64,000 bases of DNA. Source: an uncultured Marinobacter sp. GTDB lineage: Bacteria; Pseudomonadota; Gammaproteobacteria; Pseudomonadales; Oleiphilaceae. The notes beneath the pieces are model-generated. The model searched no databases. It was given only the letters and a program-made list of their open reading frames with translations, and was not told the origin of the DNA. Positions 7,501 to 57,797 of the stretch are shown piece after piece; the stretch's first letter is position 1, and the number at the start of each line of letters is the position of its first letter. The stretch is taken from the NCBI RefSeq assembly GCF_913055835.1, contig NZ_CAJXKQ010000008.1:28981-92980 (forward strand). Direction: 5' to 3'. Made by a program: the position numbers and the translations under genes.

Positions 7501-8289
7501 CCGAGAGGGGATATAGAAATAAAGGGGCTACCTGAACAGGCTGTGTCGGTTTCCGAGGATGAAGTCATCGTCGGTGTCGAGAGGGAGGAGCCCGTAGTCC
7601 GTTCACTCAACATGGATGTAAAGGTCGTAGTAGGGGAAGATCAGGTGACGTTTGCCGCCTTCGGCGTGACGGGCGATCTGGAGGGCTCCCTCAGGATCAG
7701 CAACGATATGGACACCCGGGGCACGCTTCAACTGGTCAATGGCCAGTATGAGGCCTATGGTCAGGAGCTCGAACTCAGGCGTGCCAGGCTGCTGTTCGTC
7801 GGTAACCTGGCTCAACCCTATCTCGATATCGAGGCCGTGCGGCGGGTGGATACCGTGGTTGCCGGTATACGTCTGACGGGGCCGGTGCAATCACCGGAGA
7901 CGGAGGTGTTCTCCAACCCGGATATGCCGCAGACAGATGCATTGTCCTACGTGATCCTGGGCAGGCCCCCCCAAAGCCAGGGTGACGAAGGTCAGATGAG
8001 CCGGGCGGCGCTTTCGTTGGGGCTGACCCAGGCCAGCAAGGTGACCGGGCAGATTGGCGAGGAGTTCGGTATTCGCCAGCTGACTCTTGAGGCAGAGGGC
8101 TCCGGCGATCAGACGTCGGTGGTGGCCAGCGGTTACCTCACGGATGAGTTGAGCGTTCGATACGGTGTCGGCATCTTTGAGCCGATCACCACCGTTGCCT
8201 TACGCTATGATCTGGGCCGGTACTTCTACCTGGAGGCTGCCAGTGGGCTGGCGGCCTCCCTGGATATCTTCTATACGCGGGATTTCTGA
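4528..8289 (+). CDS. tamB: Translocation and assembly module TamB (DUF490)
   Basis: 1253 aa; N-terminal TM anchor, long beta-rich body, C-terminal YGVGIFEP...LRYDL...SLDIFYTRDF. Confidence 0.93.
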   Translation: MTQTPETSDDKHQQQPARRHRLRFWLLVCLGLLFLVPVLLLAAVLLALRSETGTAWVIEQVPGLQVENDRGSLFGQWQADHLQWRGYGVEVIVESPLVDWSPSCLLKKQLCVESLRAETLEVTQLPPADKSGSGGAITLPGVDLPLGLNISGVRMGPFTLNGNRVWDRLELDAGGSGADWRIDRAWYQLGDYTVSAAGRIETRRDWPVNLEVTADIPPPYGDQWMLDAILSGSVRDLMVEVTSRGYLNAELSGEVEPLDPSLPAKLRITSEQFRAVETLPETLVLNDWFLEARGSLQRGFQTRGQARLPGTTGPVQLTLEGRVTTQAAENIRIELATDGENGSERDTVVANGRVAWSEGLEASTDVRLRGFPWYTLVPGLEEPAVVLRSLDGTASWREGSYHAELEAGVDGPQGSAELSTTVDGDTEQTKLTDLRISTGAGSLTGKGSVNFSGPLSWQAALALQDFNPGYWVPVLEASLSGDVTTEGQLGDGPIPAMSANWDLKGDWRSNPASLEGSLDTSSGSWELSGLNLVIGNNRVEGSGTWGNLLRGDLALYLPEPEIVLPGLTGNLEATLMAEGTPERPAGELKASGQNLAWQDQLSIETLSLDAELEDGLSLASRLRAENLRGFGQDLETLTLQANGTPGQHTLSVRAEHSEADLELAFEGGAGSEWKTWQGQLSSGLINLPEQSQRWQLESPATLDYGANGKLAFGNHCWRWQQSTVCADDQTLLPVPDIAYRIDRFPTVALAPLLPETVRWNARLNGEIDFTTTAEGPDGRVYLDAGDGEFQLLVDGEWESLDYDAFTTEVAFKPQQADVAVRLSGPELGRFTLDMGLDPNSENRNVEGSFNLEGLDIALAGLLSGLDEVAGQVNGQGQLSGPLMKPAVTGELHLVDGRVSDPRLPVPIEEMIASIEFSGYSAQISGRIQSNARSKTILDGEVDWQQAPRGEIRISGERIPFNVEPYAQLEVEPDLTLVFREGTLEIVGQVAVPRGDIEIKGLPEQAVSVSEDEVIVGVEREEPVVRSLNMDVKVVVGEDQVTFAAFGVTGDLEGSLRISNDMDTRGTLQLVNGQYEAYGQELELRRARLLFVGNLAQPYLDIEAVRRVDTVVAGIRLTGPVQSPETEVFSNPDMPQTDALSYVILGRPPQSQGDEGQMSRAALSLGLTQASKVTGQIGEEFGIRQLTLEAEGSGDQTSVVASGYLTDELSVRYGVGIFEPITTVALRYDLGRYFYLEAASGLAASLDIFYTRDF

Positions 8290-8291
8290 GG

Positions 8292-8996
8292 TTACTCCAG
8301 TTCGAAGGTCGCACTCACCGAAGCACGGATCTCCCGCTCGCCCACGCTTGAAACGGTATCTGACATTGATTTGGCTTCCGACATCATCATCGGCACCGGT
8401 CGATGCCCACCATTAATGTTGATGGTGACCACATCGCCGCAGGTCTGGTCGAGCCGGCTCGCCACGAACCTGCACCTCGCCTGCGCGTCGGCAATGGCTC
8501 TGGCCAGTGCTTCCTGCTCCATGCCGGTTTCATCCGAATGGAAGAACTGATGGGGCCCAAGCTGGTAATCCAGACCCACGGCCTGAGCTTCACGTAGTAG
8601 CGGGTTCAACAGGCTCAGGTCACTGATGCTGAAGCTTATGGTCTGCGAGGCGACAGCCTGTTTTTCGGGGTCCTCACCGCGCTCCGGCGCTGGAATCATG
8701 CGGGTGTAAAGGTTCACCGTCGCATCGGAATAGTCGTTGAGTCGATCCCGATAATCGGTGATGCGATCACGCCACTGCGACATCAGTTCAGCCACCCGTT
8801 CGGTAGCCTTTTGGGGGAGGGCGTGCTCGGCACTGGCGGTAAACTGTAGCCGGGCGCTGTCTGGCTCATAACGAACACTGCCTTCGCCGGTAAGCGTCAC
8901 CTCTCCCGCCAGGGCCACAGCCGGCAATGCGAGTGCCAGGGAAAGAAGATAACGGGATTGTCGAAGTATCCGGTGTTCGGGGTTCCGTCCGTTCAC
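8292..8996 (-). CDS. SIMPL/DUF541 family periplasmic protein
   Basis: Start moved to GTG at 8996, preceded by AAGGAGG; signal peptide ..AVALA-GEV; VTLTGEGSVRYEPDSA and EREIRASVSATFELE match the SIMPL pattern. Confidence 0.8.
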   Translation of the reverse strand: MNGRNPEHRILRQSRYLLSLALALPAVALAGEVTLTGEGSVRYEPDSARLQFTASAEHALPQKATERVAELMSQWRDRITDYRDRLNDYSDATVNLYTRMIPAPERGEDPEKQAVASQTISFSISDLSLLNPLLREAQAVGLDYQLGPHQFFHSDETGMEQEALARAIADAQARCRFVASRLDQTCGDVVTININGGHRPVPMMMSEAKSMSDTVSSVGEREIRASVSATFELE

Positions 8997-9027
8997 GGGA
9001 TTTCCTCCTTTGGAAATCGTTGATGGG

Positions 9028-9762
9028 TCAGGCTTCGCCGGAATCGGGTTCCAGGCGCGCCAGTTTGAATCGGCGGGCGGCATCCACGAACTGGCCAAAG
9101 ATGCGCCGATGCCCACCGTGATAGAGCAGGTATTCCGGGTGCCACTGAATGCCCGTTAACCACTGACCTCGCGTGCTCTCAATGGCCTGTACGAAAAGAT
9201 CATTGTCCACGGCGGTTACGCGCAGATTGCGGCCCAGGCGCTTGATCGCCTGGCTGTGGATCCGGTTGGCGCCGATTACCGGCGAGCGCATGGCCGCTTC
9301 AAGCCGGCTGGGCGTTACCAGGCGCACGGTTTGCAGAGGGAGCAGCAAGGGGCGGTGCCGGGTGTTTACCCTCAGCGGGGTCACGTTCTGGCACAGGGAC
9401 CCGCCGTGAAATACGTTGATGAACTGTGCGCCCCGGCAAATTCCGAGCACCGGGATACCAATGGCCTCAGCCTGCTCAAGCAGTGACTGATCGGTTGCAT
9501 CCCGTTTGCGATCATAGTTGGCGGTAACCTGGGGTTCCTGGCCATATCGCTCCGGATGGACATGGGTGCCGCCAGAGAGCACCAGGCCATCCAGCATGGC
9601 CACGGCGACCCGTGACCCGGGGCGAATGTAGTGGGTGCGGGCGCCGTGAAGACGCAGGCCCAGGCTGATCAGACGATGGGCCAGGCTTTTTCGGGCGGGA
9701 CCGCTGATGCCGATGGTCAGGCCGGGAACCTCGAGCTCCTGTTCGGGATCTTGTTCAGACAT
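9028..9762 (-). CDS. Class I glutamine amidotransferase-like / peptidase C26 (PuuD-like) protein
   Basis: DGLVLSGG, PVLGICRGAQ (catalytic Cys), GIQWHPE (His-Glu of the triad). Confidence 0.88.
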   Translation of the reverse strand: MSEQDPEQELEVPGLTIGISGPARKSLAHRLISLGLRLHGARTHYIRPGSRVAVAMLDGLVLSGGTHVHPERYGQEPQVTANYDRKRDATDQSLLEQAEAIGIPVLGICRGAQFINVFHGGSLCQNVTPLRVNTRHRPLLLPLQTVRLVTPSRLEAAMRSPVIGANRIHSQAIKRLGRNLRVTAVDNDLFVQAIESTRGQWLTGIQWHPEYLLYHGGHRRIFGQFVDAARRFKLARLEPDSGEA

Positions 9763-10756
9763 ACCCGTTCTTGGCCAGCCAGTCGTTGGTAGTTTCCTGC
9801 CAGCTGTGGGTCAGGTTGTGGAGATTGAGTTTCCGCCGTTCCCGGAAGAGTCGGCGCATATCGGCCAGATCGTCCGGATTATTGGCCAGTTGCTCCAGGA
9901 CGATCCAATCGTTCCACACGGTGGAAAAATGCCAATCAGGATTATCGATGTCGCAATCCGGCAAGCGGTAGTGCAGGGTGGGCCGGCTCTTGATCCTCGG
10001 ATCCCGCACATGGCGTTCAAGGCGCTCCCTGTCCAGATGGGCAAAGAGCGGCAGCAGATCAAGCGCCCGGTTGCGGGTCGGATTGAACTCCAGGTAGTCC
10101 TCCATCAGCTCGCCAAGGTTTGGATGGTAGTTTTCTTCCATCAGAAGCTCGGTGTAGCGGCCGTGCCAGGGTTCGATATAGGTGGTGAATTTGCGGCTGA
10201 CATCCAGCTGATGCCGGTTCTTGAGCCAGTCGTACAACGCCGCAAACGCCTGGAAGTAACGGACCATTGTCTCTGGCCTGAGATCGGGCAATTCCGGGTT
10301 AAGCTGCAGGCCGAACGCGAAGTAGATGGCATCCCGGCTGCCCAGTGCACCGGCCTCTCTGAGGTTGTCGACGAGGGATTCGATGGCTTCCAGGCTGGAA
10401 AATGGCAGGGGAGGGCTGATGATCTCCAGGGGCACAACGCGCTCGGCGGCTGCATCGATCACGTCCATTGCCTGGCCTCCCAACTCCCGGATGGATTCCG
10501 GAAGCCGCTCATCGGCCAGATCAAGATCCTTGATAGGATCGGAATCCAGTTCCACCGTGAATTCGCCCAGCTCTGTTTGCAGCGCCGTTACATATCGTGA
10601 CTTCAGTACCGGGGTTCCTTTCAGCAGTCTGGCGGCCAGTGTGACCAGCTCATCGTAGCCCAGACCAGACAATTCGATCTCGACGCCAACGCGGCGTTCC
10701 TTCCCTTCGTTTGTCTCCAGGACATCAGGCATCCTGCAGGTGCTGTCTTGAGTCAT
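9755..10756 (-). CDS. Amidoligase_2 family (glutamine synthetase / glutamate-cysteine ligase-like COOH-NH2 ligase)
   Basis: RRVGVEIELSG, LEIISPPLP, AFGLQLNPE, KSRPTLHYRLP; 8-bp overlap with the C26 gene. Confidence 0.8.
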   Translation of the reverse strand: MTQDSTCRMPDVLETNEGKERRVGVEIELSGLGYDELVTLAARLLKGTPVLKSRYVTALQTELGEFTVELDSDPIKDLDLADERLPESIRELGGQAMDVIDAAAERVVPLEIISPPLPFSSLEAIESLVDNLREAGALGSRDAIYFAFGLQLNPELPDLRPETMVRYFQAFAALYDWLKNRHQLDVSRKFTTYIEPWHGRYTELLMEENYHPNLGELMEDYLEFNPTRNRALDLLPLFAHLDRERLERHVRDPRIKSRPTLHYRLPDCDIDNPDWHFSTVWNDWIVLEQLANNPDDLADMRRLFRERRKLNLHNLTHSWQETTNDWLAKNGYV

Positions 10757-52313: not shown

Positions 52314-52706
52314 ATGTTTGCAGAAATTCCTTCCTACCTTCCCTGGGCGCTGACTGTGGCAGCATTGTCCCTGGTTTTCATTCAGGGCCTGGTTCTGGGT
52401 CGCCAGGTGCGAAGCCTCAGGGCGACGCTGAAAGAGCGCTGCGATACCCTTGGCCGGGAACTGCATGCCACAACCAGTGGCAGCATGGGGGTAGGGCAGC
52501 GGCTGGTCGCCTGTGAGCGCCAGTTGCACGAACTGCGGACCACGCTTGATGAAATGCGCCAGAACGATCCGCTACGAATCTCCTATGATGAAGCCTCTCG
52601 ACTGGTTGATCTCGGCGCCGATATCGACGATCTTATGAACACGTGCGGAATTTCCCGTCCCGAGGCCGAGCTGGTGTCAGCACTCAGAAAACGTCAGGCG
52701 GCCTGA
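52314..52706 (+). CDS. DUF2802 family membrane-anchored protein
   Basis: N-terminal TM, coiled coil, YDEASRLVDLGADIDDLMNTCGISRPEAELV. Confidence 0.88.
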   Translation: MFAEIPSYLPWALTVAALSLVFIQGLVLGRQVRSLRATLKERCDTLGRELHATTSGSMGVGQRLVACERQLHELRTTLDEMRQNDPLRISYDEASRLVDLGADIDDLMNTCGISRPEAELVSALRKRQAA

Positions 52707-52732: not shown

Positions 52733-55015
52733 ATGAAGAGACTTTATCCGAGGGCCCTTGAGGCCCTCCGATCTGTATCCCGCCATGATTTCGTTTCCGG
52801 TTCTGATCTGGTTCCCTCGATAACCGGCCACTCCATTCCCCGCGAAGAAACAGTCAGCCATATTCTCTCACTGCTGCCAGAGATCGAACCGGATCAGGTG
52901 GTGATGCACGTGGGTGGTGGCTCCGGGTATTTTGCCGCTGTGCTCTCGGGGCTGGCACATCGGGTGATTTACGTTGAGAGAAATGTAATTGTTGCCGAAG
53001 CGGCCAGAGAGCGGTTTTTCCGGCTCGGGATGCACAATGTCGATGTGGTGGTCGCCAATGCTGAAGACGCTCCTGCGCCTGACCCCTTATGCGATTTTGT
53101 CCTTTGTACCTCGTTCGTCAAAGAGCCTGGCAGCCTGGTTCGTCTGTTGCGCGAGGGCGGCCATCTGGTTTGCCTTGAGGGGCGCGCCGGGCCAGTGCCG
53201 AGCCTTGCCATGTTTGTGCACCGCAATGAAGGCCTGGAACGGGTGCGCACCCTCGGCTGGGTCGACTTCAACCGCAATGTGGAACAGATCCTGATTGACC
53301 AGGGTCTTGTGGATGACAAGATTCTGGCAGAGGCGAAAGCAGAGGCGGCAAAACAGAACTGCCGGCTTCTTGATGTGCTCCGGCGCAAACTGAATCTCGA
53401 GGAGATGGATCTCTACCGTTCTCTTGCGCGGCAGCGCGGCATGACCTTCACCGATGCGGACGAGATTCTGCCGGATCTCCAGCCGGCCCTGTTCCGACGA
53501 TTCTCACGCACATTCCTGGATCTTTCGAGGCTGATTCCTGTTGCCGAAGAGGATGGCAGAATCACCGTTGTCACCGATGATCCCGATGCCCGGACGGACC
53601 AGCTGGAGCGCTTGAGCCCCAACCAGGTGGTGGATTGTCTCCTGGTGACACCGACCGATTTTCGCCGTCTCTGGTCAGCGCTTGATCTGACCGCCAAGGG
53701 GCGCCGTTTTGCAGCCGATCACGAACATGGCCCGGAGCAGGAGAAGGATTCGACTGGCAGCCCGGACCAGCTGCTAGGCAAGGACCCGAACAACAAGCAT
53801 GTCAGTCCCTATCTGGTGTCGGTCTACGAGGCCATCCTGTTGGATGCGGTAAGCGAGAAAGCAAGCGACATTCATATCGAACAGTACGGTGACCGGATTC
53901 GCATCCGCCTGCGGGTGGATGGTGATCTGCACGATCTGCCGCAGTACCAGTTATCGCCCCGGGAAATTAAAGGGGTGATCAACGTGATCAAGCTACGGGC
54001 GGAATTGAACATTGCCGAGCATCGTTTGCCCCAGGGTGGCCGGTCCCGGCTTCAGCTTGGCGATATGGCTTACGATCTGCGTATCCAGACCCAACCCTCC
54101 CTGCATGGCGAGCATGCGATCATCCGGCTGCTGCCGCAAACCGGCCGGGCCATGACCATTGCCGAACTAGGCATGTCGTCGATGATTGGCGCGCGTTATC
54201 AGCGCCTGCTGGATAACCCGGCGGGGCTGGTACTTGTGGTAGGGCCGACCGGCTCCGGAAAATCCACCACCCTGTATGCCGGCCTGCAGACACTGGCCGA
54301 TGATGGGCGCCGGAAAGTGATTACGGTGGAGGACCCCATCGAGTACTCCATCGATAACATCCAGCAGACCCGGGTCCGGTCGGAAATCGGCTTCGGTTTC
54401 GCCGACGCCATGAGAGCGTTTGTCCGGGAGGATCCGGATGTGATTCTGGTGGGCGAGATCCGGGACCAGGAGACGGCACTGGAAGCGATCAGGGCTTCCC
54501 AGACCGGGCACGTGGTTCTTTCTACGCTGCACTGCAACGACGCGGTGGATTCACTCCAGCGTCTCTATGATCTGGGTATCCATCCCAACTCCATCGCCGG
54601 TGAGCTGTTGGCCGTTATTGCCCAGCGGCTGGCCAAGCGTATCTGCAAGCATTGCAGGCAGCCTGCGGAGCCGGATCCGGTGATTCTGTCCGAGGTGTTC
54701 CCGGATGGTCCGCCCGCAGATTTCCGCTGTTTTGAAGGCGCCGGCTGCGATAAATGCAGTGGTCGCGGCACCCAGGGCCGAGTGGCGATTGTCGAGTACA
54801 TGGAGGTGGATTCTGATATTCGAAATGCCATTTCCAGCCAGCCGCCCATCGGGGAACTGCGTTGGCGTGCGCTCGATGCCGGACTGGTGACCATGCGTGA
54901 CAGCGCTCTGGATCATGTGATTGAAGGCATAATCCCGCTTTCCGAACTGCCCCGGATTCTCCCAAGGGAGCGCATGGCACCAGAAGTTCGTGGCGGCCGC
55001 AGGAGTCAGCAATGA
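52733..55015 (+). CDS. GspE/PilB-family secretion/pilus ATPase with N-terminal PCMT-like methyltransferase-fold domain and degenerate MshEN-like region
   Basis: aa 1-179 resemble Pcm (ALEALRSVSRHDFV, VMHVGGGSGYFAAVLS, VIYVER, GGHLV); ATPase motifs ASDIHIE, GPTGSGKST, TVEDPIE, DPDVILVGEIRD, GHVVLSTLH, CKHC..CDKC. Confidence 0.88.
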   Translation: MKRLYPRALEALRSVSRHDFVSGSDLVPSITGHSIPREETVSHILSLLPEIEPDQVVMHVGGGSGYFAAVLSGLAHRVIYVERNVIVAEAARERFFRLGMHNVDVVVANAEDAPAPDPLCDFVLCTSFVKEPGSLVRLLREGGHLVCLEGRAGPVPSLAMFVHRNEGLERVRTLGWVDFNRNVEQILIDQGLVDDKILAEAKAEAAKQNCRLLDVLRRKLNLEEMDLYRSLARQRGMTFTDADEILPDLQPALFRRFSRTFLDLSRLIPVAEEDGRITVVTDDPDARTDQLERLSPNQVVDCLLVTPTDFRRLWSALDLTAKGRRFAADHEHGPEQEKDSTGSPDQLLGKDPNNKHVSPYLVSVYEAILLDAVSEKASDIHIEQYGDRIRIRLRVDGDLHDLPQYQLSPREIKGVINVIKLRAELNIAEHRLPQGGRSRLQLGDMAYDLRIQTQPSLHGEHAIIRLLPQTGRAMTIAELGMSSMIGARYQRLLDNPAGLVLVVGPTGSGKSTTLYAGLQTLADDGRRKVITVEDPIEYSIDNIQQTRVRSEIGFGFADAMRAFVREDPDVILVGEIRDQETALEAIRASQTGHVVLSTLHCNDAVDSLQRLYDLGIHPNSIAGELLAVIAQRLAKRICKHCRQPAEPDPVILSEVFPDGPPADFRCFEGAGCDKCSGRGTQGRVAIVEYMEVDSDIRNAISSQPPIGELRWRALDAGLVTMRDSALDHVIEGIIPLSELPRILPRERMAPEVRGGRRSQQ

Positions 55016-56115
55016 GTAACAGGCAATCTATGAACAAGGCGGCCCAGCGGGAACCGGTAGAAGTGGTCTATGCGGCTGAGCTGGACAAACTCCGGAGCAT
55101 GGATCATGGACCCGTGCCCCCCGGCTGGTTGATGTCCCCCCGTGCGGTGGAAAAGTTCGTGATGGGGGATGAGAAGCTCGGCATTGAACGAAAATTTGTT
55201 GCCGAGCGGGCCATGGTGGTCCGGATTATCATTTCCCTGTGCACCAGTCGCGGCTGCCTGCTGGTCGGGGAGCCCGGGACGGCCAAATCCTGGCTGTCGG
55301 AATTGCTGGCTGCCGGCATTTCCGGCAGCTCCACGCTGACGCTCCAGGGTGGCGCGGTGAACAGCGTCGGGCAATTGCTGTATAGCTGGAATGAGGCGGT
55401 TCTGCATACCGAGGGCCCCTGTCTGAAGGCGTTGGTGCCCAGCCCCTTGCTGCGGGGCATGATGGAAGGGCGGATGGTTCGGTTTGAAGAGATTGCCCGC
55501 TGCCCCCAGGCGCTGCAGGACGCGCTGCTCTCCGTGCTTTCCGACAGGGTGGTGGTGATTCCCGAGCTGGCGGGTGACGAGGGTGTGGTGCTTGCCCGTG
55601 AAGGCTTTAACGTCATCGCCACGTCTAACAGTATCGACGAGGGTGTGCACCGGATGAGTGCTGCCCTCAAGCGGCGTATGGACTTCGAGGAGATCCGGCC
55701 AATCCGGAACCTGGCGGACGAAATGGATGTTGTGCTCCGCGAAGTGAACAGGGCCAACAGGCGGGCAGGCATCGATGTGGAGCTTGATGAGACGGTCATC
55801 GAGATTCTGGTGACCATGTTCCACGAACTGCGCAATGGCCAGACCCTTGATGGGCGCAGTACCGATCGTCTCGCCGGCTCGGCACTGTCCACCGCGGAAG
55901 CCGTGTCGGTCGCTCACGCAGCCAGTCTCAACGCCTGGTATTACGGTGGCGGAAGTATCACGGTAGAGCAGCTGATGCACCACATCGTCGGCTCTGCCCT
56001 CAAGGACCAGCCCGAGGACCGGCGCCGGTTGCGCCACTACTTCGAAACCACGGTGGCGCCAAGACGGGGTGATAACTGGCAGCAGGCCTGGGCGTTGCGT
56101 TCACTCATCCATTGA
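55012..56115 (+). CDS. MoxR-type AAA+ ATPase, YehL-like subfamily
   Basis: YAAELDKL..PVPPGWLMSPRAV N-terminus, GEPGTAKS Walker A, VRFEE Walker B, IATSN, MSAALKRR; ATGA overlap with the upstream gene. Confidence 0.87.
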   Translation: MSNRQSMNKAAQREPVEVVYAAELDKLRSMDHGPVPPGWLMSPRAVEKFVMGDEKLGIERKFVAERAMVVRIIISLCTSRGCLLVGEPGTAKSWLSELLAAGISGSSTLTLQGGAVNSVGQLLYSWNEAVLHTEGPCLKALVPSPLLRGMMEGRMVRFEEIARCPQALQDALLSVLSDRVVVIPELAGDEGVVLAREGFNVIATSNSIDEGVHRMSAALKRRMDFEEIRPIRNLADEMDVVLREVNRANRRAGIDVELDETVIEILVTMFHELRNGQTLDGRSTDRLAGSALSTAEAVSVAHAASLNAWYYGGGSITVEQLMHHIVGSALKDQPEDRRRLRHYFETTVAPRRGDNWQQAWALRSLIH

Positions 56116-56418
56116 TTCATCCGGCGGCGTGCCGGGTTTGCGGTCCTCGGGCGTCAGCCCGCGAATATGGAAGGCAAACGCGAGGATTTCCGCAATCACC
56201 CGGTACAGCGACTCGGGAATCTCTTCGTTCAGTGACAGGCGCGCCAGAATGCTGGCCAGCTCCGCATTTTCGTAAAGAGGCACATTGTGCTCCCGGGCAA
56301 TGCGGATGATTTCTTCCGCCAGCTCGTGGGTGCCGGTGGCGCTGATGGTGGGCGCTGTCTCGCCATCGTACTTGAGGGCGACGGCGGCCCTGCTTGGCTG
56401 TTCGGTTTCTGATGTCAT
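56101..56418 (-). CDS. Stand-alone FlhB C-terminal (EscU/YscU/HrcU-like) domain protein
   Basis: Start moved to ATG 56418; AVALKYDG..AP, AEEIIRIAREHNVP, EIPESLYRVIAEILAF; no TM region or NPTH. Confidence 0.9.
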   Translation of the reverse strand: MTSETEQPSRAAVALKYDGETAPTISATGTHELAEEIIRIAREHNVPLYENAELASILARLSLNEEIPESLYRVIAEILAFAFHIRGLTPEDRKPGTPPDESMDE

Positions 56419-57797
56419 GCCCGTGTATCCACCAGTCTGTGTTCGAGTCGGGTAACGCTGCTCTGGGGCGTGCCGCGGCGGCAGTCCAGGTCCGTCACCT
56501 CCAGGCCAAGGTCGGTCAGGCTCTGTCGCAACGCGGGAAGCTCCTGGTTCACCTGGCGCAGGGTTGTCTGTTTTTCTGCCCACACCCGCGCGCTCACTGC
56601 CTGTTGTCGAAGGGCAACGTCAAAATGCAGGGGGCCAGCCTCATCCAGATCCATGGTCAGTGAAAGCCGCCACTCGGCTGTAGCGGTTTTCGCGGATCGG
56701 GTTTCCGAATCACCTTCCTGCGGGTACTGTTCGACCCGGACCTGCGCCAGCCTTGGCTCGTTCTGGGGTGTCAGCCACGGCAGATCGAGCACCAGGGTAG
56801 ACGCGGGCGCGGGGCCGGGCGCTTCGCCGCCGCCCCGAGCGGTCAGTACCTGGCTGTGCAATTGGTTGACGGTAATCCGGTTAAGCATCCCGGCCAGCAG
56901 GCGGAGCATCTGGCCCACGCTGGGCGCGTCGCCACTGCCCGGGGCCTGGGGCGTGGCCAGGGGCTGGGGAAACTGCAGTGGCGCCCGCATGAGCTCTGGC
57001 GTCGAGATGGGTGTCAGCCGGTTGAACTGTTCCGGTGTGCTGCCCTGTTGGGCGAGCAAAGCGGTGATTACCCGGCCCAGGGCCAGTTTGAGATCGGGCA
57101 ACTGGGCAGTCGGTGTCTGGGCCAGACGTGATTCGGCGAACAGGCCACTTTCCGACAGCCACTGGCGGACCTGTTGCGGTGTTGAGTCCTGGCCGCCGGA
57201 ACCGGGGAGCAGGCTCTTTCCGGAAGGCAATCTTGCCACCATCTGTTCGATAGCCTGTCTGGCGGCTTCCGGAAGTGGTTGGGGGGCCCTCGAGGAGGGC
57301 AGTTGGCCCGGGACGGGATCTTGCCGGAGACCCTGTGTCAGTGCGCCCATCAGTCTGGCTAGGCCAGCGTCCAGTGACTGCTGCCAGGGCAGGCGCTGGG
57401 CGAGGGCCCGGGCGATACCGGCTTCGGGCGCGGGCGCCAGTTTGCCCATCAGCTGGAGCTCATTGCCGGCACGCATCACCTTTACCCAGTCACCGGTCGC
57501 CAGTTCGGTCTTGCCGACGGCGGCCTGGACGAGAAGAGACTTGCCCCGGATGTCCAGTAACAGGTCCGCACTGGCGCCGCCCTGACGGTTGATGATCTCT
57601 GCCACCCGGGCCAGAGTGGTCTCCCGGTTTGTCAGCTGCAGCTGGTCGAGCAGCTGCCGCGCAGATGTCGTCACTGGCTCGCGGGCCGCTTCGGTGGTGA
57701 CGGCGGGCCGGGAGGTCTGCGGTGCAGGCTGGGTTGGCGGTGTAGGGGGCTGTTGTCCGCTGGGTAGTTTCATCGTCACTGATTTGATGTTGGACAA
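56415..57797 (-). CDS. Second FliK-like protein (C-terminal hook-length-control domain)
   Basis: Pro/Ala/Gln-rich; C-terminal WRLSLTMDLDEAGPL..LRQSLTDLGL..LVDTRA; 4-bp overlap with the FlhB-like gene; start uncertain (TTG 57797 or ATG 57773). Confidence 0.8.
   Translation of the reverse strand: MSNIKSVTMKLPSGQQPPTPPTQPAPQTSRPAVTTEAAREPVTTSARQLLDQLQLTNRETTLARVAEIINRQGGASADLLLDIRGKSLLVQAAVGKTELATGDWVKVMRAGNELQLMGKLAPAPEAGIARALAQRLPWQQSLDAGLARLMGALTQGLRQDPVPGQLPSSRAPQPLPEAARQAIEQMVARLPSGKSLLPGSGGQDSTPQQVRQWLSESGLFAESRLAQTPTAQLPDLKLALGRVITALLAQQGSTPEQFNRLTPISTPELMRAPLQFPQPLATPQAPGSGDAPSVGQMLRLLAGMLNRITVNQLHSQVLTARGGGEAPGPAPASTLVLDLPWLTPQNEPRLAQVRVEQYPQEGDSETRSAKTATAEWRLSLTMDLDEAGPLHFDVALRQQAVSARVWAEKQTTLRQVNQELPALRQSLTDLGLEVTDLDCRRGTPQSSVTRLEHRLVDTRA

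Follow-up and report, generated by a model that had tools for sequence, protein, structure and literature searches.

A predicted PIMT-derived domain fused to a PilB/GspE-type ATPase in Marinobacter and encoded together with an overlapping AAA_5 gene

The window analyzed here comprises 64,000 nucleotides from an uncultured Marinobacter sp. (contig NZ_CAJXKQ010000008.1, positions 28,981 to 92,980). According to the open-reading-frame list, positions 52733–55015 of its forward strand (stop codon included) form one unbroken reading frame of 760 aa. The encoded protein consists of three parts, i.e. a PIMT-like domain (aa 1–180), an MshEN domain (aa 181–331) and a T2SSE motor (aa 359–738). Pfam assigns PCMT (PF01135) to aa 7–147, MshEN (PF05157) to aa 248–318 and T2SSE (PF00437) to aa 362–739. 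The NCBIfam PilB model TIGR02538 covers aa 183–741 at model positions 2–560 of 564, and therefore about 180 extra residues precede a complete PilB-like protein. The last PIMT strand passes straight into the first MshEN helix without a linker, and the junction residues LG.VDF.R..E.ILID are conserved. An earlier note on this DNA had proposed that a PIMT-like domain is fused to the N-terminus of a pilus/secretion motor ATPase, which is borne out by the reading frame, the Pfam and NCBIfam assignments and the predicted fold. The fusion gene is preceded by a DUF2802 gene (52314–52706, forward strand; PF10975), the last gene of a flagellar/chemotaxis cluster, and followed on the same strand by the gene for an AAA_5 (MoxR-type) ATPase of 367 aa (55012–56115; PF07728, 91.6 bits), whose start overlaps the stop of the fusion gene (ATGA).

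The fusion is not confined to this assembly, a case that the earlier note had allowed for: many genomes encode proteins of this architecture, and a search for it returned at least 115 protein clusters combining PF01135, PF05157 and PF00437. Among at least 49 sampled Marinobacter genomes, 30 carry the fusion (~60%). A 301-genome sample of the order contained it in 15 genomes representing 7 of 134 genera (Marinobacter and six others), and none was present among 399 other genomes sampled from the class. Overall, its conservation extends over several marine genera of the Gammaproteobacteria. In this class scan with the N-domain profile the E-value failed to separate fusions from canonical Pcm, and therefore the extent of the match past the junction and the length of the open frame were used instead. 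Three long frames flagged in this way turned out to be an unrelated fusion of PCMT with erythromycin esterase. Public databases label the fusion proteins either ‘ATPase, T2SS/T4P/T4SS family’ or ‘protein-L-isoaspartate O-methyltransferase’, neither of which fits well, and some public gene calls cut off the N-domain. Two members that seemingly lack this domain were set aside, one as a start-codon miscall (P0086, 701 aa) and the other as probably a further such miscall (P0085, 658 aa).

The N-domain (52733–53272, forward strand) scores 41.2–44.7 bits against PF01135 and passes the gathering cut-off of 20.3 bits. The AF2 model of aa 1–200 reached a pLDDT of 87.8 and a pTM of 0.86. When the N-domain model was compared with the PDB by Foldseek, the structure search that the earlier note had suggested for aa 1–179, a Rossmann methyltransferase fold of the PIMT type was found: the first 15 matches were all PIMT structures (TM 0.65–0.72), and non-PIMT methyltransferases in the same search did not exceed a TM of 0.53. 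The fold is common to the N-domain and Pcm/PIMT (PF01135; PDB 3lbf, 4l7v, 2yxe, 1jg1), including the PIMT-specific C-terminal strands. Judging from the model, the N-domain is a class-I methyltransferase-fold domain derived from protein-L-isoaspartate O-methyltransferase, which has kept the PIMT fold. It is under purifying selection (dN/dS 0.06–0.12) and therefore functional. Unlike Pcm proper, it fails the NCBIfam Pcm equivalog cut-offs (PRK00312, 71.3 vs 188 bits; TIGR00080, 56.3 vs 159 bits). Two canonical Pcm genes, scoring ~209 bits each, are present elsewhere in the genome and provide for canonical repair.

The by-eye motif matches of the earlier note were rechecked by aligning the fusion protein with the genome’s own two Pcm proteins, and residue conservation was counted over 76 fusion sequences. 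The matches stand in this alignment. The VPR..F helix, the GxGxGY motif I, the post-I acid and GG.L are common to Pcm/PIMT and the N-domain: RALEALRSVSRHDFV corresponds to PIMT RVLE.M..VPRH.F., motif I reads VMHVGGGSGY, the post-I acid sits in VIYVER, and GGHLV corresponds to GG.L. Within the glycine-rich SAM loop of motif I (G61-G-G63-S-G65-Y66; 52913–52930, forward strand), G61, G63, G65 and Y66 are invariant in 76/76 sequences. At E82 (52976–52978, forward strand), the acidic post-I position that contacts ribose in class-I methyltransferases, all 76 sequences carry E or D. By alignment, the N-domain thus retains that half of the SAM site which holds the glycine loop and binds ribose.

In contrast to Pcm/PIMT, the peptide-binding elements are altered, just as had been read by eye. 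The AYxD..LPI loop is missing through a deletion of 8–9 residues relative to the genome’s Pcm proteins, GQTISQP is changed to GHSIPRE, and the motif-I acid is replaced by His (H59). Where PIMT carries its isoaspartate-binding ‘GQTIS’, the fusion family has the signature G32-H-S-I-P36 (52826–52840, forward strand), in which G32 and P36 never vary among the 76 sequences and S34 and I35 reach a conservation of at least 90%. The Pro sits where PIMT has a Ser that cannot be mutated without loss of activity (PMC11522691). The signature, in the form G[HR]SIP, was seen solely in fusion-type proteins, and no standalone carrier was clearly identified. The Asp-Gly and Thr/Ser criteria for SAM and isoaspartate contacts were used as applied in PMC11522691. 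At the site of the PIMT ‘GDG’ SAM adenine contact (A108-N109-A110; 53054–53062, forward strand), the SAM-contacting Asp-Gly corresponds to N109-A110 in the window protein; the Marinobacter clade has lost this contact and varies at the position, with S, D, A, P or N in close relatives, whereas the Asp is retained in 32/39 distant fusions. A family-specific Glu, E149 (53177–53179, forward strand; 74/76 sequences), replaces Pro/Val of the PIMT ‘PVG’ region and forms part of a remodeled, invariant pocket together with G[HR]SIP, R17 and F20. The invariance of S34, E149, the post-I acid and GxGxGY is also compatible with a methyltransferase that is still active, but on a new substrate. Since the elements recognizing isoaspartyl peptides are replaced, the N-domain is predicted not to be a canonical isoaspartyl repair enzyme.

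The MshEN (GSPII-type) domain (53273–53725, forward strand) scores 44 bits against PF05157 (gathering cut-off 23.1) and is modeled by AF2 with a pLDDT of ~80; in the PDB, it is best matched by GSPII-B of Thermus PilF, a domain that binds c-di-GMP. The c-di-GMP receptor of MshEN, reportedly described by Wang et al. in 2016, is said to consist of paired 24-residue motifs starting with RLG. Here, the first motif reads N-V-E-QILIDQGLV rather than RLG, the residue immediately before it is the nearly invariant R181, and the second motif is partly retained (RLLDV...LYRSLARQ). On account of the NVE in place of RLG, c-di-GMP input to this domain is uncertain. A disordered, fast-evolving linker (aa 332–358; 53726–53806, forward strand; pLDDT 37, dN/dS 0.07–0.46) leads to the motor, which comprises N2 and the C-terminal ATPase (53807–54946, forward strand; PF00437, 361.8 bits). 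Walker A (GPTGSGKST; 54242–54268, forward strand), the Asp box, Walker B, the His box and the tetracysteine (C638, C641, C672, C675) are invariant in the 76 sequences, and dN/dS of the motor is 0.009–0.019. The closest folds are those of PilF, PilB and GspE, with whose structures identity is 34–38%. The pTM of 0.49 of the full-length AF2 model is too low to place the head relative to the motor.

MshEN, N2 plus C-terminal motor, ATPase boxes and tetracysteine are shared with MshE of V. cholerae, Thermus PilF, Geobacter/Myxococcus PilB and GspE. Unlike these c-di-GMP-regulated T4P/T2S ATPases, however, the fusion protein carries a PIMT-derived domain and a C-terminal tail, has an obligate AAA_5 neighbor and no adjacent platform, pilin or secretin gene, carries NVE at the first RLG, and fails the NCBIfam equivalog cut-offs for both PilB (416 vs 675.65 bits) and GspE (403 vs 630.25 bits). 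A search of the literature for a fusion of PCMT with GspE or PilB returned no paper describing one, in agreement with the earlier note, which knew of none. Judged from its sequence, the fusion protein falls into a separate subfamily of hexameric ATPases of the PilB/GspE/MshE type that has so far not been described.

The constant genomic partner of the fusion is the overlapping AAA_5 gene, which the earlier note had overlooked, and not the chemotaxis genes. The AAA_5 gene is adjacent to or overlaps the fusion gene in 11/12 contexts, and it is present in 14/15 fusion genomes of the order-wide sample. All 14 partner orthologs (at least 57% identity) lie 2.26–2.29 kb downstream of the start of a fusion gene and none elsewhere; the dN/dS of the partner is 0.03–0.055. 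The fusion protein ends with a family-specific tail, LPRILP.ERMAPE.RGGRR (aa 739–760; 54947–55012, forward strand), which is nearly invariant in the 76 sequences and was not found in the genome’s three canonical motor paralogs. Among nine sequences compared, ‘MAPE.RG’ of the tail is present in 7/7 members with the partner and in 0/2 without it; the N-domain signature stays in fusion members lacking the AAA_5 gene. We also considered the conserved tail as a methyl acceptor, but set this idea aside because its covariation with the partner makes a role in docking more likely.

The methylation-dependent chemotaxis genes upstream had suggested a functional link to the earlier reader. This link was not supported: the chemotaxis synteny is fixed within Marinobacter only (loci L020 and L021), where DUF2802 is the neighbor of the fusion, and is missing in every other genus examined, so that a conserved association was rejected. 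In other loci the pair is flanked by housekeeping genes, and integrase or mobile-element genes flank it in none. Genes for a platform (GspF/PilC), pilin or secretin are absent near the fusion in the window as well as in 11 other loci, and the genome’s T2SSF genes adjoin only two other ATPases (on contigs C24 and C10). A platform protein from another locus might serve the motor. The assembly is 94% complete, and one of the paralogs (contig C49) sits at the end of its contig. No conserved link to methionine/SAM metabolism genes was seen in any context examined, and there are no precursor or maturase genes near the fusion. RNA contigs from Logan (relatives, low word share) show that the locus is transcribed and run from DUF2802 into the start of the fusion gene, but they yield neither levels of expression nor the limits of an operon. 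A scan for promoters and terminators gave counts not above those of shuffled controls.

Departures of the PIMT fold from repair have precedents. The best PDB sequence match of the N-domain is chain t of 8qby, CI-PIMT, a catalytically inactive PIMT subunit of Paracoccus denitrificans complex I, which serves as a structural/stabilizing module (PMC11522691). CI-PIMT has lost the Thr/Ser isoaspartate and the Asp-Gly SAM contacts and coexists with a canonical ‘free’ PIMT; RPA2580 of R. palustris has been grouped with it as an inactive PIMT paralog (PMC11522691). By sequence match, motif I and the post-I acid are retained in the catalytically dead CI-PIMT too. The N-domain of the Marinobacter clade resembles CI-PIMT in that the SAM-contacting Asp-Gly is lost, motif I is kept and canonical Pcm is also encoded in the genome. 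CI-PIMT, in contrast, is a separate polypeptide on a respiratory complex, whereas the fusion N-domain is covalently joined to a PilB-type ATPase, has Ser at the Thr position and displays its own invariant signature. A second precedent is provided by the RiPP-associated PIMT homologs (OlvSA, TceM/LihM, graspimiditide and imiditide methyltransferases), which have been retargeted to one dedicated substrate, methylate a specific Asp and are sometimes fused to other domains (PMC13001092). Like these, the fusion N-domain is PIMT-derived and has moved away from isoaspartate repair, and it shows weak similarity to RiPP-type NCBIfam models (TIGR04364, 35 bits; TIGR04188, 33 bits). They are set apart by an extra C-terminal recognition domain with WxxxGxP and by their peptide biosynthetic clusters. 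The pairing of the two ATPase genes recalls archaeal type IV pilus loci, in which a MoxR/GvpN AAA+ ATPase, a predicted regulator, is linked to the pilus genes (Makarova et al. 2016, PMC4858521). A MoxR-class ATPase gene next to a T4P-type secretion ATPase gene is common to both arrangements. However, the archaeal modules carry a vWA-domain protein and full pilus loci, whereas the pair described here consists of two ATPases alone; no vWA-domain gene was found beside it in 12 contexts.

On balance we favor, with modest confidence, that a PIMT-derived regulatory head has been repurposed on an orphan PilB-type motor in a two-ATPase module. The PIMT-derived domain and MshEN would form a rigid head, tethered by the disordered linker, that gates the intact motor. 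What triggers the gating may be a protein partner or else a small ligand, which for the wider family would be SAM/SAH and which the Marinobacter clade may no longer bind. The motor, orphaned from platform, pilin and secretin genes, would work with the translationally coupled MoxR-type AAA_5 ATPase, which probably docks on ERMAPE.RG of the tail. The place beside the chemotaxis genes would then be a Marinobacter-specific insertion site with no conserved functional link. For the N-domain itself, a non-catalytic scaffold or regulatory role appears at least as likely as that of a sensor or a new methyltransferase, because the dead CI-PIMT keeps the same motifs, Asp-Gly is lost or variable and the motif-I acid is His.

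It is conceivable, if rather unlikely, that the N-domain acts as an SAM-dependent O-methyltransferase on a new dedicated substrate, which could be an Asp/Glu of the motor, the AAA_5 partner or another protein. Invariant GxGxGY and post-I acid, a pocket that is remodeled yet invariant, the GDG Asp of most distant members, the low dN/dS of the N-domain and the proven retargeting of the fold in RiPP homologs would all agree with catalysis. Yet the Asp-Gly is lost or variable precisely in the clade of the window, the motif-I acid is His, the Ser essential to PIMT activity is Pro, the two retained motifs survive in inactive CI-PIMT as well, and no conserved candidate substrate gene exists but the partner. 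Alternatively, the N-domain might bind SAM/SAH without catalysis and couple methyl-donor status to motor activity, as the earlier note had envisaged. This sensor appears unlikely: strict conservation of the glycine loop and ribose-binding acid alongside the loss of catalytic and substrate elements, and the rigid fusion to MshEN, a known type of ligand-sensing domain, speak for it, but the missing adenine and amino-acid contacts argue against binding just as they do against catalysis, CI-PIMT demonstrates that the motifs can persist without bound cofactor (PMC11522691), and no context holds a conserved link to methionine/SAM metabolism. A bolder proposal, which we regard as improbable, is that the pair is a two-ATPase machine, self-contained and independent of a platform, whose head still uses SAM to carboxyl-methylate a conserved acidic residue of the motor or the partner. 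If true, this would amount to a CheR-like reversible methylation switch on a PilB-type motor, possibly integrated with c-di-GMP via MshEN.

That the two genes form a mobile anti-phage defense or accessory module, with the methyltransferase-like domain in a self/non-self or modification role, is very unlikely. The patchy spread over 7 of 134 genera and ~60% of Marinobacter and the recurrence of the two-gene unit in unrelated neighborhoods might be read this way, but nuclease or other effector domains and flanking mobile-element genes are lacking, the flanks are of the housekeeping type, and within Marinobacter the position is fixed and purifying selection is strong. In PADLOC, the AAA_5 gene had no match and the two genes did not jointly match one known defense system; the weak similarity to mad2 (E 1e-14) is limited to the methyltransferase fold and therefore lends no support to a defense role. 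A canonical PIMT tethered to the motor for repair of isoaspartyl damage in the machine or its substrates is scarcely credible, given the deleted AYxD loop, the invariant Pro for the isoaspartate Ser, Pcm equivalog scores of 71 and 56 bits vs 188 and 159 and the two canonical Pcm genes in the same genome, even though the PCMT score exceeds the Pfam gathering threshold and the fold is PIMT-like. Finally, that the fusion arose from misassembly or misannotation, e.g. through a stop codon lost between pcm-like and pilB-like genes, can practically be dismissed, as nothing in its favor was found and the identical unbroken frame recurs in dozens of independent genomes and metagenomes, with a direct, conserved strand-to-helix junction and no clearly identified standalone protein bearing G[HR]SIP.

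The repurposed head on an orphan motor remains the reading that we prefer. ATPases of the PilB/GspE class are thought to act only on the membrane platforms of pili and secretion systems, with N1 or MshEN domains mediating their regulation, e.g. by c-di-GMP. The subfamily departs from this picture on three counts, i.e. a repurposed repair-methyltransferase fold, an obligate MoxR-type AAA+ partner and the lack of a cognate platform, which suggests either that these motors are regulated in a new manner or that they serve a new cellular purpose. It would also represent a second, independent case after Paracoccus CI-PIMT in which the PIMT fold has been recruited to a large machine with loss of isoaspartate recognition. 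Since the fusion is frequently encoded by members of the tractable marine genus Marinobacter, these ideas are directly testable.

A PilB-type motor, itself intact but an orphan, has a PIMT-derived domain (PIMT, protein-L-isoaspartate O-methyltransferase) rigidly joined to its MshEN head. The gene, a single uninterrupted ORF at 52733-55015 (+), encodes 760 aa, in which Pfam recognizes PCMT (PF01135, aa 7-147; 41 bits in the whole protein and 45 bits for the excised piece at a gathering cut-off of 20.3), MshEN (PF05157, aa 248-318) and T2SSE (PF00437, aa 362-739; 362 bits). The NCBIfam PilB model TIGR02538 covers aa 183-741 at positions 2-560 of 564, i.e. nearly in full, and the protein is therefore a complete PilB-like protein with ~180 extra residues in front. 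At the junction, whose residues are conserved, the last PIMT strand (LGWVDF) leads directly into the first MshEN helix (EQILIDQG). The full-length AlphaFold model comprises a confident head (pLDDT ~90 for the PIMT-like and ~80 for the MshEN part), a disordered linker (aa 332-355, pLDDT 37) and a PilB-like motor; at an overall pTM of 0.49 the domain orientation is not readable from the model. For the MshEN part, the closest similarity is to the c-di-GMP-binding GSPII-B domain of Thermus PilF, but NVE takes the place of the first RLG. The motor has every catalytic box as well as the tetracysteine motif and resembles PilF, PilB and GspE most closely (34-38% identity). It ends in a family-specific, nearly invariant tail, LPRILP.ERMAPE.RGGRR, which is not present in the three canonical paralogs of the same genome.

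The earlier note had recognized the PIMT likeness by eye, and both structure and alignment bear this out. AlphaFold2 modeling of aa 1-200 with a 76-sequence alignment yielded a pLDDT of 87.8 and a pTM of 0.86, the only low-confidence region being the loop aa 27-32 directly before GHSIP. In a Foldseek search of the PDB, the first 15 matches were all PIMT structures with TM scores of 0.65-0.72 (among them 2yxe, 4l7v, 3lbf, 8qby_t, 4o29, 1jg1, 1dl5, 1vbf, 1r18, 1i1n and 1kr5), while generic class-I methyltransferases ranked after them at 0.53 or lower; the idea that a Rossmann methyltransferase fold is absent thus fails. When the fusion was aligned with both canonical Pcm proteins that the genome encodes, all matches made by eye were corroborated, including the altered elements: the AYxD..LPI loop is deleted in the fusion, which also has GHSIPRE where Pcm has GQTISQP and carries His at the position of the motif-I acid.

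Residue conservation was counted over 76 diverse fusions. G61, G63, G65 and Y66 of motif I as well as G32 and P36 are invariant, S34, I35, R17, N102 and E149 are conserved to at least 90%, and all 76 have E or D at the post-I acid position, but none has an acidic residue at that of the motif-I acid. Of 39 distant members, 32 retain the Asp of "GDG"; the Marinobacter clade has lost it, and the position varies there (N109-A110 in the window protein). The G[HR]SIP signature is confined to fusion-type proteins, whereas the closest standalone relatives retain QTISQP. In comparisons with six congeners, the dN/dS of the motor was 0.009-0.019, that of MshEN 0.025-0.063 and that of the linker 0.07-0.46; with values of 0.06-0.12, the PIMT-like domain is clearly under purifying selection. 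It is hence a conserved and selected PIMT derivative devoid of isoaspartate-recognition residues and, judged from its sequence by criteria of the type applied to CI-PIMT (see below), it is not an isoaspartate repair enzyme. Canonical repair is also unlikely as its role because two normal Pcm genes (C1:202033-202623 and C39:16245-16838 of the window's genome; ~209 bits each) already cover this function.

PCMT domains also occur in other composite proteins. In P0151 (637 aa), a full PCMT domain (198 bits) follows or precedes no separate gene but shares one polypeptide with an archaeal-type S-adenosylmethionine synthetase (PF01941), which unites methyl-donor synthase and repair methyltransferase, and P0128, a giant of 4611 aa, has three PCMT-like stretches. 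An apparently widespread fusion of 658-710 aa links a canonical-looking PCMT (~214 bits) to an erythromycin-esterase-like domain (PF05139; protein clusters P0089/P0090; loci L032, L034 and L035 in genomes G399, G492 and G340); frames of this type (672-686 aa) are present in the same-genus genomes G041 and G114.

The best PDB sequence match of the N-domain is 8qby chain t, the CI-PIMT subunit of Paracoccus complex I. CI-PIMT was judged catalytically dead, as it has lost the isoaspartate-binding Thr/Ser and the SAM-binding Asp-Gly and shows no cofactor density; an S-to-A change abolishes activity of Drosophila PIMT, and RPA2580 of R. palustris is inactive (PMC11522691). We rank first, and consider slightly more probable than not, a regulatory or adaptor role other than repair. 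Second, and a good deal less probable, the domain may be a methyltransferase with a new substrate, which is conceivable since in RiPP-associated PIMT homologs the fold has been retargeted to a specific Asp (PMC13001092). A SAM/SAH sensor ranks third, slightly behind. Like the window's domain, inactive CI-PIMT retains motif I and the post-I acid in the alignment, and these motifs alone are therefore no proof of SAM binding.

An artefact is unlikely, as the fusion recurs in at least 115 listed protein clusters and, among at least 49 genomes of the genus, in 30; it is thus not unique to this assembly. A search with the N-terminal 200 residues retrieved ~90 clusters of the same length and PF01135+PF05157+PF00437 architecture, nearly all from Marinobacter, and an exhaustive search detected full-length fusions with no more than 27-36% identity in the N-domain. 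A profile built from the latter yielded the at least 115 clusters, among which are members from Halopseudomonas salina, Pseudomonas sp., a Pseudomonadales MAG and Ca. Pelagadaptatus aseana. Across the family the motor is conserved far above the PIMT-like part (full-length identity 44-54%). In the order sample (301 genomes, 134 genera) 15 genomes from 7 genera carry the fusion; in the even class sample of 400 genomes it was found in the window's own genome only, and three long PCMT-containing frames there proved to be the unrelated PCMT-erythromycin-esterase fusion. P0086 (701 aa), a candidate member lacking the domain, was rejected as a start-codon miscall: the stop-to-stop frame 7821-10106 of its locus L014 contains the domain in full and may begin with a non-standard start codon. 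The public gene call of P0085 (658 aa) probably also begins inside the gene, hiding the PIMT-like domain. Full-text literature searches gave no paper on PCMT/PIMT fused to a GspE, PilB or MshE ATPase or on the ATPase pair described below, and in public databases the family carries generic or misleading names.

The earlier note had further related the gene to the chemotaxis genes upstream, a link that did not hold beyond the genus. The window's upstream genes (motCD, a ParA-like gene, two cheW genes and DUF2802, the latter only 26 bp from the fusion) have the same order in M. nauticus and M. zhejiangensis, but unrelated housekeeping genes flank the fusion in the nine contexts outside Marinobacter (Pseudomonas sp., Halopseudomonas, Pelagadaptatus and six contigs of metagenomic or other origin). 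The chemotaxis neighborhood would accordingly be a Marinobacter-specific insertion site; the pair appears to be inserted there between DUF2802 and FlhB-/FliK-like genes at the end of a flagellar/chemotaxis cluster. In the window, an FlhB-C-terminal-like gene (56101-56583, -; PF01312 in orthologs) and a FliK-like gene (56415-57797, -; PF02120) converge on the downstream gene.

The sole constant neighbor is this downstream gene (55012-56115, +), which encodes an AAA_5 (MoxR-type) ATPase (367 aa in the window, 360-367 aa over the contexts). It directly follows the fusion in 11 of 12 contexts, and the two genes usually share a 4-bp ATGA. Partner orthologs (at least 57% identity) in the order sample lie only 2.26-2.29 kb downstream of the fusion start (14/14), and the pairing was confirmed in genome G704; the motor is tightly co-inherited with this ATPase. 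P0082 (846 aa, metagenomic) has PCMT, MshEN, T2SSE and AAA_5 in one frame, representing either a fused pair or a frameshift or assembly artefact. In RNA contigs of close relatives the sequence runs on from DUF2802 into the fusion, and the partner gene is covered in part; hence the locus is transcribed. No platform, pilin or secretin gene lies beside the pair in any of the 12 contexts, and in the window's genome T2SSF genes adjoin two other ATPases only. In four of nine non-Marinobacter contexts (L016, L017, L019, L030), which exceeds chance expectation, GGDEF, GGDEF-EAL or PilZ genes lie a few genes away from the pair at most; this is a weak hint at c-di-GMP input, perhaps through MshEN. That the pair is a defense module is unlikely; the nearest precedents are CI-PIMT and the MoxR/GvpN-vWA modules located close to archaeal T4P loci.

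The "MAPE.RG" part of the tail (aa 739-760; window 54947-55012) is present in all seven checked members with the partner, a small sample, and absent from both fusions without it (genome G640 and cluster P0130), which keep the N-domain signature; covariation of tail and partner was noted in the window and at loci L039 and L019. The tail rather than the N-domain thus seems to be the element tied to the partner, with ERMAPE.RG as a candidate docking motif. The two ATPases would form a complex through the tail, and binding of a ligand or protein by the head would regulate the motor.
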